Origin: a virus
IMG/VR virus record: IMGVR_UViG_3300032268_001296
Span: 1 to 64,000 of that record
Reading direction: 5' to 3' (one strand)
Length of the DNA: 64,000 nt
Both the position numbers and the translations under genes were made by a program. The notes under the pieces are model-generated. The model made no database searches. It was not told where the DNA came from and was given only the letters and a program-made list of their open reading frames with translations. This document shows positions 11,481-16,936 of this stretch, piece after piece; position 1 is the first letter of the stretch, and each line of letters starts with the position of its first letter.

Positions 11481-11484
11481 AAAG

Positions 11485-11557
11485 TCCGCGAGTCAGGACT
11501 CGAACCTGATTAGTAGGAGTCACAATCCTAGGCATTACCACATATGCTACTCTCGGA
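11485..11557 (-). tRNA. tRNA-His(GTG), with U-1/A73 instead of G-1/C73
   Basis: TAGGA-TTGTGAC-TCCTA arm; canonical T-arm. Confidence 0.85.
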
Positions 11558-11916: not shown

Positions 11917-11924
11917 GATAAAAG

Positions 11925-12000
11925 TGGAGACTGAGGGAGTTGAACCCTAAGTTTAACTTGCGTGCAAGGCAAGTGCTACACCCATGTAGCCACAGTCCCC
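11925..12000 (-). tRNA. tRNA-Ala(TGC) with non-canonical 8/4 fold
   Basis: GGGGACTG/CAGTCTCC 8-bp acceptor with G3:U70; 4-bp T-stem; 6-bp D-stem. Confidence 0.8.
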
Positions 12001-12171: not shown

Positions 12172-12403
12172 AATTTCGTGATTGTAACACTTCCGAAGAA
12201 GATAGTCAACCTTCAAAGCTTTCGCTCCAGCAAACAGTTACATAACAAGCTTCACGCAGCCGAGGCATCCTTCCCAAGAGTCACCTTGAGCTAGACTTGC
12301 GATTTTTACCAGTATTACTGGCTTCCCTTCATGTGGACTCAATGGTGCCTTACCATCAAGTGTCTATCGCGAACACACTAGCTGATGACTAGTCAGCGTG
12401 TCT
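12172..12403 (-). ncRNA. unassigned structured RNA, about 230 nt
   Basis: Many nested helices, GAAA and UUCG tetraloops, two possible pseudoknots; no convincing ORF. Confidence 0.6.
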
Positions 12404-12412
12404 TTTTTAAAT

Positions 12413-12526
12413 TGGAGTTTCTCGCTACAAGATCTCACAGACTGCTAATCCTGTGACGTTTCGTTGTCCTACTAGTTGCATTCTTGTAATTCACCTCGTC
12501 AGCTATATCTGCACAATACGAGAAAC
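12413..12526 (-). ncRNA. unassigned small RNA with terminal helix plus UCCA
   Basis: GTTTCTCG/CGAGAAAC closing stem; internal TACAAGA/TCTTGTA and TCACAG/CTGTGA helices. Confidence 0.55.
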
Positions 12527-12530
12527 AAAT

Positions 12531-12604
12531 TGGAGCTTGGAGTTTTTGTAGAGTCTTGAGGTACCGCCCCTCATTATGCATGCTCTTCCAGACCCTCTCC
12601 AAGC
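12531..12604 (-). ncRNA. tRNA-minihelix-like small RNA with terminal helix plus UCCA
   Basis: GCTTGGAG/CTCCAAGC stem; inner 7-bp stem stacked on a TGAGG-GGCGGTA-CCTCA T-arm-like hairpin. Confidence 0.55.
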
Positions 12605-12879
12605 AAATTTGTTAGATCTTCATCCCAGCGTTGATGGAACGTTTCTTCTCCATCGTCACCGCTAACCAACCAATCGATTCTTTGTGCCATGATAGCAGCT
12701 TGACTTAGAATGTCAACGGCGGTTCGGAACTTTTGGATCGTGCCATCGCTGTAGCTGCGGATGGCGACGGTGCCGTATTCATTGGTCTGATCAGAATTGT
12801 TATTCTTGATCAGACGCTCGATCTCTCTAGCGATTTCGAAAATGTCGTATTGTTTGTAATCAAAATGTCCTCCGCTCAT
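12574..12879 (-). CDS. hypothetical phage protein (MSGGHFDY start)
   Basis: MSGG.FDY...IDWL.SGD.GE pattern; TATAAT-6nt-ATG upstream. Confidence 0.7.
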   Translation of the reverse strand: MSGGHFDYKQYDIFEIAREIERLIKNNNSDQTNEYGTVAIRSYSDGTIQKFRTAVDILSQAAIMAQRIDWLVSGDDGEETFHQRWDEDLTNLLGEGLEEHA

Positions 12880-13789: not shown

Positions 13790-13796
13790 TTGAAAG

Positions 13797-13825
13797 TAGG
13801 TCGTGAGGGAATCGAACCCCCGTTG
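13797..13825 (-). pseudogene. 3' half of a tRNA (T-arm and acceptor 3' strand only)
   Basis: GGGGG-TTCGATT-CCCTC-ACGACCT-A with no matching 5' half; abuts the HNH gene insertion. Confidence 0.65.
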
Positions 13826-13870
13826 ATTTTTTTTTTGAACGATGTTGTATTCATTCGTGTAAATACTAAT

Positions 13871-14392
13871 ATGAAATGCTTACATTGTCAAGAAGAAACT
13901 AAAAATCCAAAATTTTGCTGTCGTACTTGTGCAGCGATATATAATAATAAAAAAAGTCCAAAAAGAAAATTAACTAGATTGTGTTCATGTTTAGACTGCA
14001 AAAACATAGTAAGAAACTATAGATCTTCTCTATGCGAGACTCACTATCAAGAGTATTTAAAATGTAAAAAAGATTCTATACTAGAGACTACGATAGGAGA
14101 ATATAGAGATAGAAACAAATTGCTTCATAGTTCATCAACTCATGCACACATAAGAGGATTAGCGAGAAGCTGGTTCAAAGAGTTAACAAAAAAACCATGT
14201 GCTGCTTGTGGTTATAATAAGCATGTTGAACTGTGCCATATTAAATCGATGGCTTCTTTTGCAGAAGATAGCTTAATTAAGGAAGTAAACAACAAAGACA
14301 ATATCGTTCAATTATGTCCAAATTGCCATTGGGAATTTGACAATGGTTTATTAAACAGAGAGCAGGGATGGCAGGACTCGAACCTGCATTGA
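13871..14392 (+). CDS. HNH endonuclease (homing-type), antisense to the tRNA array
   Basis: N-terminal C..C/KFCC..C zinc finger; C..CG..ELCHI...N...LCPNCHWEFD motif; GTGTAA-N8-ATG. Confidence 0.85.
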   Translation: MKCLHCQEETKNPKFCCRTCAAIYNNKKSPKRKLTRLCSCLDCKNIVRNYRSSLCETHYQEYLKCKKDSILETTIGEYRDRNKLLHSSSTHAHIRGLARSWFKELTKKPCAACGYNKHVELCHIKSMASFAEDSLIKEVNNKDNIVQLCPNCHWEFDNGLLNREQGWQDSNLH

Positions 14393-15709: not shown

Positions 15710-16273
15710 TTATAAAAAAGATTCCCATTCTTTTCTAACTTTATTTACATTAAATATGAAAGACGGAATTGATGGTGCTTGAGGCACATTTCCATTAATA
15801 TCATACCAAGGAGTATAAGATCCCTTTTTGCAATTACAAGAACGACAAGCGAGAACTCTATTCGAGTGATCGTCTGTGCCACCTTTGCTTCGAGGATGAA
15901 TATGATCGATTGTTAAATCAGAAATATTCTTCTTTGTAAAACAATACTGACAAACATAGCCGTGGATTTTAGCTAGCTCATAAACAGTGAGCTTTTTTCT
16001 TTTAGGCTTAGTGAAGTATTTGCTTGTTACAACAAGCAGTGTTGGAATTGGCCAAACGGCTTTTGCGCTACGAAGAACAGGTTGATCTTCATAAAACTCT
16101 GCATGCTCATTCCAAGCTTCTAGCGAATGGAAAAGATTACTATTTTTATCGAGAGCTGTAACGTTATCTTTGAGCAGATGCAAAAAAGCATCTTTAGCAG
16201 TAATCGTAGCAATTGGTTGCCACGCGCTATTCAACAATAAGGTTGTTTTAAAATCTGAATCTACTACATTCAT
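15710..16273 (-). CDS. HNH endonuclease (McrA-like)
   Basis: TLLLN..WQP start; CQYC..LTIDHIHPRSKGG...N.VLAC..CN. Confidence 0.88.
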   Translation of the reverse strand: MNVVDSDFKTTLLLNSAWQPIATITAKDAFLHLLKDNVTALDKNSNLFHSLEAWNEHAEFYEDQPVLRSAKAVWPIPTLLVVTSKYFTKPKRKKLTVYELAKIHGYVCQYCFTKKNISDLTIDHIHPRSKGGTDDHSNRVLACRSCNCKKGSYTPWYDINGNVPQAPSIPSFIFNVNKVRKEWESFL

Positions 16274-16279
16274 TTTAAT

Positions 16280-16936
16280 TTAAATTTTAAGACAGTCCGC
16301 GCAAGACAATTCACCAGCATCATAGTAAGTTTTTTCAGACTTTGGATACTTGCTTGCTACTTCATATGTCAGTTTTTCGCGCATTGATTTCTTTTGATTT
16401 TTAGATCCCACGAAATAAAAATATCGATGCTTTTGAGAGGGTTTAATTTTTGAGATGTTGTTTTCCTTTGCCCATTCGCTGGGATTAGTGATTTTATACT
16501 TGTCGCGAATAGTCATTGCGTGAGTTGGAATACCATCAATCACATAAAGACTGTCATGAGATACTGTAGCTCCAGTATACAACCAGTTTGTTGCTTGATA
16601 AACAATTCCACTGTGTCCAAAAGCAGAGTCAGCGTAACTAACAATTGCGCACGGTTTTTCTTTTAGCATTTCGATTGCCCGACTAATCAAAAAAGAAGCT
16701 GCATTTTTATGTCCAGAATCAACAACCAATCTTGTTAGCTCGTAAAGCCTAAAGTTCCTATCTTTAAAAGAGTACTTTTGGATAGGAGCAGAAGGTTGAC
16801 CAAAGCAACAAACTCCAATTAGAACATCATTCTTAAAAAGTCCAAATCCTTCCCAAAAGATACCCAATCGTCGTGAGTAATGTTTTTGAGAAACAATAGA
16901 ATTTGCAACTTCTTTAGTGATTTTTTTGACAATCAT
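16280..16936 (-). CDS. Mom-like DNA modification protein (GNAT fold)
   Basis: ELTRL, ASFLISRA, IVSYAD...H.G.VYQATNW.YTG and K.RY.Y motifs. Confidence 0.75.
   Translation of the reverse strand: MIVKKITKEVANSIVSQKHYSRRLGIFWEGFGLFKNDVLIGVCCFGQPSAPIQKYSFKDRNFRLYELTRLVVDSGHKNAASFLISRAIEMLKEKPCAIVSYADSAFGHSGIVYQATNWLYTGATVSHDSLYVIDGIPTHAMTIRDKYKITNPSEWAKENNISKIKPSQKHRYFYFVGSKNQKKSMREKLTYEVASKYPKSEKTYYDAGELSCADCLKI

Follow-up and report, generated by a model that had tools for sequence, protein, structure and literature searches.

A probable 8/4-form tRNA-Ala(UGC) with a short variable loop in the tRNA array of a freshwater phage

The DNA analysed here (the window, 64,000 nucleotides) comes from a freshwater phage and covers the first 64 kb of its 112-kb IMG/VR virus record. 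The record has a G+C content of 36%; among its genes are those for siphovirus-type tail proteins, RIIA, a DNA polymerase, a ribonucleotide reductase and a Clp-type ATPase. An array on the minus strand (∼7.7–15 kb) contains 17 tRNA genes, as identified by ARAGORN, and a tmRNA. The tRNA-Ala(UGC) gene of this array is separated by 6 nt from tRNA-Ile(GAU) and by 8 nt from tRNA-Cys and is the sole tRNA-Ala gene of the whole 112-kb record, the other tRNAs of the phage forming a nearly full U34/G34 set. Alanine is encoded in the phage by GCU (51%), GCA (32%), GCG (11%) and GCC (6%); nearly all of these codons could be read by a tRNA-Ala with U34 (GCU, GCA and GCG together make up 94%). ARAGORN reports the gene as tRNA-Ala(tgc) at 11924–12000. 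The Rfam tRNA model RF00005 accepts it with 41.6 bits (gathering score 29) in an alignment that requires the deletion of one T-stem pair. Positions 11925–12000 have no read cover in four public runs (two DNA and two RNA), and the RNA read depth near them stems from a tRNA-Ile-like sequence.

Several neighbouring features of the array were also recorded. The tRNA-His(GUG) gene at 11484–11556 (minus strand) has C1, an A4·G69 mismatch and A73, with a run of U upstream and no encoded G−1; the same gene is carried by two relatives of the phage (L005 and L010). A region of non-tRNA small RNA at 12222–12695 is covered by a 357-nt metatranscriptome contig (run X15) and by DNA contigs (run X3), all of which skip ∼120 nt (from 12408 to 12527–12531); as the skip recurs in the DNA runs, it reflects an insertion/deletion difference between strains and not splicing. 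Three protein genes, at 13790–14392 (plus strand), 15710–16273 (minus strand) and 16280–16936 (minus strand), comprise two HNH endonuclease genes inside or beside the tRNA array and a gene for a Mom-family protein just past it.

Table 1. Parts of the tRNA-Ala(UGC) gene, in coordinates of the window.
Feature	Position	Strand	Description and basis
Whole tRNA-Ala(UGC) gene	11925–12000	minus	76 nt, from G1 (12000) to the discriminator A (11925); CCA not encoded, single C next
Acceptor stem, 5′ strand, nt 1–8 (GGGGACUG)	11993–12000	minus	G3 wobbles with U70; fold and alignment
Acceptor stem, 3′ strand, nt 68–75 (CAGUCUCC)	11926–11933	minus	Fold and alignment
Connector UG, 2 nt, acceptor to D stem	11991–11992	minus	Invariant in all nine family members
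D arm	11975–11990	minus	6-bp stem GCUACA/UGUAGC, loop UGGG; fold and alignment
Anticodon arm	11956–11974	minus	6-bp stem including A26–U44, loop CUUGCAC; fold and alignment
Anticodon UGC	11964–11966	minus	ARAGORN
Variable loop UAAACUU	11949–11955	minus	7 nt; the final U is former position 49, faces C and is unpairable
T arm	11934–11948	minus	4-bp stem AGGG/CCCU, canonical 7-nt loop UUCAACU; Rfam alignment, fold and alignment

The minus strand of 11925–12000 reads exactly as transcribed in the initial annotation, which had proposed a tRNA-Ala with stems of 8 bp (acceptor, containing G3:U70), 4 bp (T), 6 bp (D, closed by a 4-nt loop) and 6 bp (anticodon) and with a short variable loop. Both the minimum-energy and the centroid structure computed by RNAfold display this 8/4 fold with all of its parts (Table 1), at −29.6 kcal/mol (z = −3.0; none of 200 shuffled sequences was as stable). 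Canonical tRNAs have a 7-bp acceptor stem and a 5-bp T stem, and U8 is near-universal in them. In the fold of the phage gene, the first C of the acceptor 3′ strand (11933) pairs with G8 and abuts the T stem, which gives a continuous stack of 12 bp, and the U that follows the eighth acceptor pair occupies the place of the canonical U8. ARAGORN draws the gene with a 7-bp acceptor stem, a 3-nt connector GUG and a U·C mismatch as the outer T-stem pair; this drawing is the 8/4 fold with the G8–C pair left open. The anticodon loop, C/U-U-UGC-A-C/A, is normal for tRNA-Ala.

Homologues were collected with a pattern that constrained only the connector, the core of the D arm and the anticodon loop, so that the acceptor and anticodon stems, the variable loop and the T arm could vary freely. 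This pattern matched nine stretches of the metagenome collection (eight family members and one chance match) and four of IMG/VR. The family comprises nine distinct sequences, some of them found in more than one contig: the phage gene of the window, L307 (identical to L309), L308 (identical to L314), L315, L312, L310 (identical to L316 and L317), L311, L226 and L250. Several are close to one another, and the contigs that carry the eight further homologues, of phage or metagenome origin and 1–140 kb long, are all rich in tRNA genes. Over 185,579 prokaryote species, searched with one genome per species, the sole match (L318) is not a tRNA. Removing the anticodon constraint added no members and revealed no other anticodon on the 8/4 scaffold, freeing the inner D-stem pairs added no members and no covariation at those pairs, and the family model R1 added none over ∼1.9 Mb of loci. 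The members score 75–96 bits with R1; the 7/5 tRNA-Ala genes of the relatives reach 31–43 bits, and canonical tRNA-Ala genes in the scanned loci 31–38 bits. Patterns that demanded C32 or a GTTC T loop returned only L226 and L250, since the T loops of most members are not GTTC. A loose pattern for the 5′ half gave almost only chance matches; among the matches listed were the tRNA-Ala genes of L106 and L117 (the same as L002), which were rejected as family members because they are of a different, 7/5 type. These two genes (L002:4011–4087 and that of L106, a 332-kb contig) are themselves unusual: CCA is encoded, the variable loop has 8 nt, and the D arm has a 5-bp stem containing G·U pairs and the 7-nt loop CAUGGGG.

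On the alignment of the nine sequences (A1), the 8/4 structure is paired in 216 of 216 cells, with compensatory changes on both sides at 13 of its 24 pairs; none of 500 shuffles was as good, and partners slid out of register pair in 39–49%. RNAalifold, run with no structure supplied, returns the 8/4 consensus. Seven sequences have G:C as the eighth acceptor pair (8:65) and two, L226 and L250, have A:U; the compensatory change at this pair rests on these two related sequences. The pair specific to the 7/5 register (49:65) forms in two of the nine and is U·C in the other seven. In the seven members of the G8 type the 8/4 fold is better than a 7/5-type fold by 2.5–2.8 kcal/mol (ViennaRNA); in L226 and L250, which have A8, A49 and U65, A49:U65 can form too, and these two are ambiguous, with the registers within 0.4 kcal/mol of each other. 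ARAGORN draws L312 as 8/4, and L308 and L315 with a 7-bp acceptor stem and a 3-nt connector. G1–C72, G2–C71, G3·U70 and A73 are invariant in all nine members, and the CCA encoded immediately 3′ of A73 in L310, L226 and L250 fixes both the acceptor end and the register. The register of the Rfam alignment, in which the first G becomes −1 and the C becomes the discriminator, was rejected as it shifts the G·U pair to 2:71 and contradicts the CCA after A in these three relatives. A 5-bp T stem with a 4-nt loop, an alternative in L310 and L311, was likewise rejected as it cannot form in the other members. Comparison of the homologues, which the initial annotation had put forward as a way of separating the 8/4 and 7/5 registers, thus supports the 8/4 register. 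The proposed 8-bp acceptor stem with G3:U70 and the 4-bp T stem are borne out by the minimum-energy fold, the complete pairing and the RNAalifold consensus, as are the 6-bp anticodon stem and the short variable loop by the minimum-energy fold, with all pairs kept in the eight homologues.

The members differ most visibly in their loops. The variable loop has 6–8 unpaired nucleotides in the seven G8-type members and 11 in L226 and L250. The T loop is a non-canonical GUCAGUA in L307 (1892–1967), L310 (956–1032) and L311 (4136–4210) and AUCAAUA in L308 (660–735), L312 (980–1055) and L315 (777–852). Its positions 54 and 58 change together, being U/A in the phage gene, L226 and L250, G/G in three members and A/A in three. 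U55–C56 of the T loop and G18–G19 of the D loop are invariant in all nine. These loops bear on detection: the copy in the window is recognized by standard finders because it has a canonical T loop, the T loop of most relatives being GUCAGUA or AUCAAUA. Five of the eight relatives (L226, L250, L307, L310 and L311) go undetected by ARAGORN, and six of the seven that were tested with RF00005 (L226, L308, L310, L311, L312 and L315) fall below the gathering score, L250 being the sole one to pass, with 29.9 bits. L226, L310 and L311 are missed by both.

The 6-bp D stem with its 4-nt loop, as initially annotated, is present in the minimum-energy fold, and its outer four pairs have covariation or wobble support in the nine sequences, but the two inner pairs (C–G and A–U) are invariant, were fixed by the search patterns and carry no covariation support. 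A26–U44 is likewise invariant in the nine. A canonical 8-nt D loop would carry A14 and A21, and both are absent. The 6-bp stem is better than a 4-bp stem by ∼4 kcal/mol; since the two inner pairs never vary and were fixed by the patterns, the 6-bp stem rests on this energy difference and on the absence of A14 and A21. We infer that the D arm consists of a 6-bp stem and a 4-nt loop and that position 26 pairs with 44, adjustments as in tRNA-Sec and allo-tRNAs.

The gene could also be regarded as a defective 7/5-type tRNA, with a 7-bp acceptor stem, an unpaired G8 in a GUG connector and a 4-bp T stem followed by a tolerated U49·C65, the 8/4 fold being an artefact of the energy model. This is how ARAGORN draws the phage gene, L308 and L315. 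Unpairable 3-nt connectors occur in tRNA-Met genes of related arrays (L002, L003 and L009), so an extra connector base is tolerated, and a full 5-bp T stem is possible in L226 and L250. We nevertheless judge such a defect very unlikely: positions 8 and 65 are Watson–Crick complementary in all nine sequences while 49:65 fails in seven, no spacer separates C65 from the stacked helices on either side of it, the energies of the seven G8-type members favour the 8/4 fold, ARAGORN itself draws L312 as 8/4, and the U next to the eighth pair sits at the canonical place of U8. Still harder to credit is that the RNA is not a translation adaptor at all and represents a decaying tRNA pseudogene, or a tRNA-like RNA acting as a processing signal, primer or decoy. 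Several tRNA-like non-tRNA RNAs are present in the same operon, the Rfam score of 41.6 bits is low for a tRNA and most relatives fall below the gathering score; against this, all 24 pairs are kept in the nine sequences with compensatory changes, the anticodon loop, G18–G19, U55–C56 and the complete AlaRS identity set are invariant, and the gene is the only tRNA-Ala in a phage whose tRNA set is otherwise nearly full. The random decay that the initial annotation had considered as a possible refutation is not seen, both the pairing and the AlaRS identity set being strictly conserved. We therefore regard it as probable that the phage encodes a working tRNA-Ala(UGC) which truly has the 8/4 form and keeps its acceptor/T helix at the normal 12 bp.

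The 8/4 tRNAs published in 2017 (Mukai et al., Nucleic Acids Res 45:2776, PMC5389517) include phage tRNA-Ser and tRNA-His, minor tRNA-Cys and tRNA-Sec, and allo-tRNAs, in which a tetraloop caps a long D stem and the anticodon stem is lengthened. The phage gene has the (8/4) branch in the sense of that paper (an 8-bp acceptor stem plus a 4-bp T stem). As described there, the phage (8/4) tRNA-His and tRNA-Ser resemble it in lying in phage tRNA clusters, in a 12-bp branch split 8/4 and in a cognate anticodon, and tRNA-His also shares the short variable loop; the gene reported here differs from both in its alanine identity (G3·U70 and A73). The initial annotation had held that tRNAs of this shape normally carry long variable arms, which is so for allo-tRNAs and tRNA-Sec, but the short loop of the phage 8/4 tRNA-His makes a long arm not obligatory. 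Allo-tRNAs (8/4 and 9/3 with G3:U70) have in common with the phage gene the 8/4 branch and the alanine determinant G3:U70, and their long D stem with a tetraloop and lengthened anticodon stem match the predicted D and anticodon arms of the gene. They differ in having a long variable arm, mostly Ser-type G73/U73 and mismatched anticodons (GCG and UUA in the alanine-charged examples), whereas the phage gene has a 7-nt variable loop, A73 and a cognate UGC anticodon and so lacks the features that define an allo-tRNA (the long variable arm, and a mismatched anticodon or G73/U73). Bacterial tRNA-Sec resembles the predicted fold of the gene in its 8-bp acceptor stem, its 6-bp D stem with a 4-nt loop and its extended anticodon stem, but its 13-bp branch is split 8/5, its variable arm is long, its anticodon is UCA and SerRS charges it; the 12-bp branch, UGC anticodon and short loop of the phage gene set it apart. 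Neither the main text of PMC5389517 nor the searchable literature yielded an 8/4 tRNA-Ala that carries its own UGC anticodon. On the sequence, the phage gene would thus add a new species, a tRNA-Ala with a short variable loop and a cognate anticodon, to the known 8/4 tRNAs.

The features by which AlaRS recognizes its substrate are present in the sequence of the phage gene (G3·U70, together with A73, G1–C72 and G2–C71). According to Mukai et al. (2017; PMC5389517), 8/4 and 9/3 tRNAs with G3:U70 are processed, charged mainly with alanine and used by E. coli ribosomes. The invariant acceptor end of the family and the analogy with these tRNAs suggest that the phage tRNA is chargeable, and its function as a tRNA-Ala is likely. 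In the proposed sequence of events, the gene would be transcribed within the minus-strand tRNA operon and the tRNA excised by host RNase P, cutting at G1, and by 3′ processing enzymes; a host enzyme would add CCA (a single C being encoded), host AlaRS would charge the tRNA through G3·U70 and A73, and EF-Tu would deliver it to the ribosome, where it would read GCA, GCG and probably GCU, which are 94% of the alanine codons of the phage.

A neighbouring virion protein of the phage has hundreds of relatives in IMG/VR, the best at 84% identity. The closest relative of the phage, L002, reaches 84% with the virion protein and with the DNA polymerase alike. In the relatives that have tRNA arrays (L002, L003, L005, L010, L014 and L072), the tRNA-Ala(UGC) genes are of the 7/5 type; the gene is canonical in L005 and L010, where it lies in the same Ala-(Trp)-Ile-Thr neighbourhood, and it is also canonical in L003, L014 and L072. 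The genes of L005 and L010 share with the phage gene the anticodon, the GGGG...CUCCA acceptor end with G3·U70 and A73 and the place by tRNA-Ile(GAU)/tRNA-Thr(UGU), but have a 7/5 branch, U8, a 4-bp D stem, a 7–8-nt D loop and a 4–5-nt variable loop, and they score 31–35 bits on R1. The viral records that bear family members (G001, G002, G003 and G004; 18–65% complete) contain no match to the DNA polymerase or the virion protein of the phage, and the ORFs of the phage have no tblastn match in the family loci, where the flanks are short. In three other viral records with a family member, that member is the sole match to the family model and thus the only tRNA-Ala there. The lack of marker-protein matches in the family records, together with the 7/5 genes of the true relatives, hints at exchange or replacement of tRNA-Ala genes in mosaic arrays; the distribution fits either neutral or selected spread.

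Other unusual tRNA genes were encountered in these and other phage contigs. Short tRNA-Ala(UGC)-like genes of 68–70 nt (L240:4271–4339, identical to L272:2691–2759; L295:4636–4703; L267:1941–2010; and L257:5714–5783) have a D arm reduced to a mini-hairpin on the same octamer, CAUGGGUG, and that of L240 has a 4-bp T stem with a G·A mismatch above. The arrays of L240 and L272 that hold this short tRNA-Ala also contain a tRNA-Trp(CCA), which ARAGORN draws as 8/4 with a connector of 3 nt, a D stem of 3 bp and a D loop of 5 nt. Among arrays that hold an 8/4 tRNA-Ala, those of L312 (406–493) and L309 (4889–4977), both on the minus strand, include a tRNA-His(GUG) of 88–89 nt with a paired long variable arm as drawn by ARAGORN. 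The tRNA-Pro(UGG) of L310, L316 and L317 has an acceptor stem of eight positions in which G8 can pair with C65, an internal A·A mismatch, the same UG connector and only 3–4 pairs in the T stem; this array may hold a second tRNA of the 8/4 type. Genes for tRNAs with the amber-reading anticodon CUA are present in L309 (10629–10703, identical to L307:4622–4696) and L295, whose arrays also hold unusual tRNA-Ala genes.

A further reading, added to that of a working 8/4 tRNA-Ala and raised in the initial annotation as possible evasion of host tRNA-targeting enzymes, takes the shape itself as an adaptation: the 8/4 branch, the closed D arm and G8 would let the tRNA escape a host enzyme that reads the canonical geometry of tRNA-Ala (for instance a modification enzyme, or a defence or toxin nuclease that attacks the acceptor or elbow region), with charging by AlaRS kept. 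With the D-arm/anticodon pattern the family is found only in phage-type contigs, with no true match in the 185,579 prokaryote species at one genome each, its members occur in records that share neither marker protein with the phage while the closest relatives are 7/5, which looks like gene replacement, and a family member is the only tRNA-Ala wherever it occurs. A neutral variant spreading among mosaic tRNA arrays predicts the same distribution, however; no host, candidate nuclease or defence gene is linked to the tRNA-Ala, its anticodon loop is ordinary, and 8/4 tRNAs for other amino acids occur in bacteria too. On balance we regard an adaptive origin of the shape as unlikely. It is similarly improbable, in our view, that the 8/4 scaffold with a short variable loop and a closed D arm is a phage-specific architecture, kept because it escapes a host enzyme and remains a substrate of AlaRS, EF-Tu and the ribosome, and spread between unrelated phages as a counter-defence cassette. 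If it were, many phages scored as having no tRNA-Ala would carry one, since standard finders miss most members, and tRNAs would have an escape through global architecture besides the published changes in the anticodon loop.

For the 8/4 tRNA-Ala as such, the annotation gap means that the tRNA complements of phages are under-counted. A compact 8/4 tRNA charged through G3·U70 alone could be a scaffold for engineered tRNAs. The gene adds to the natural 8/4 tRNAs (Ser, His, Cys, Sec and mismatched allo-tRNAs) a tRNA-Ala for ordinary sense codons that has a short variable loop, and it is likely that the bacterial translation apparatus accepts the 8/4 geometry in a class I tRNA with a different identity.
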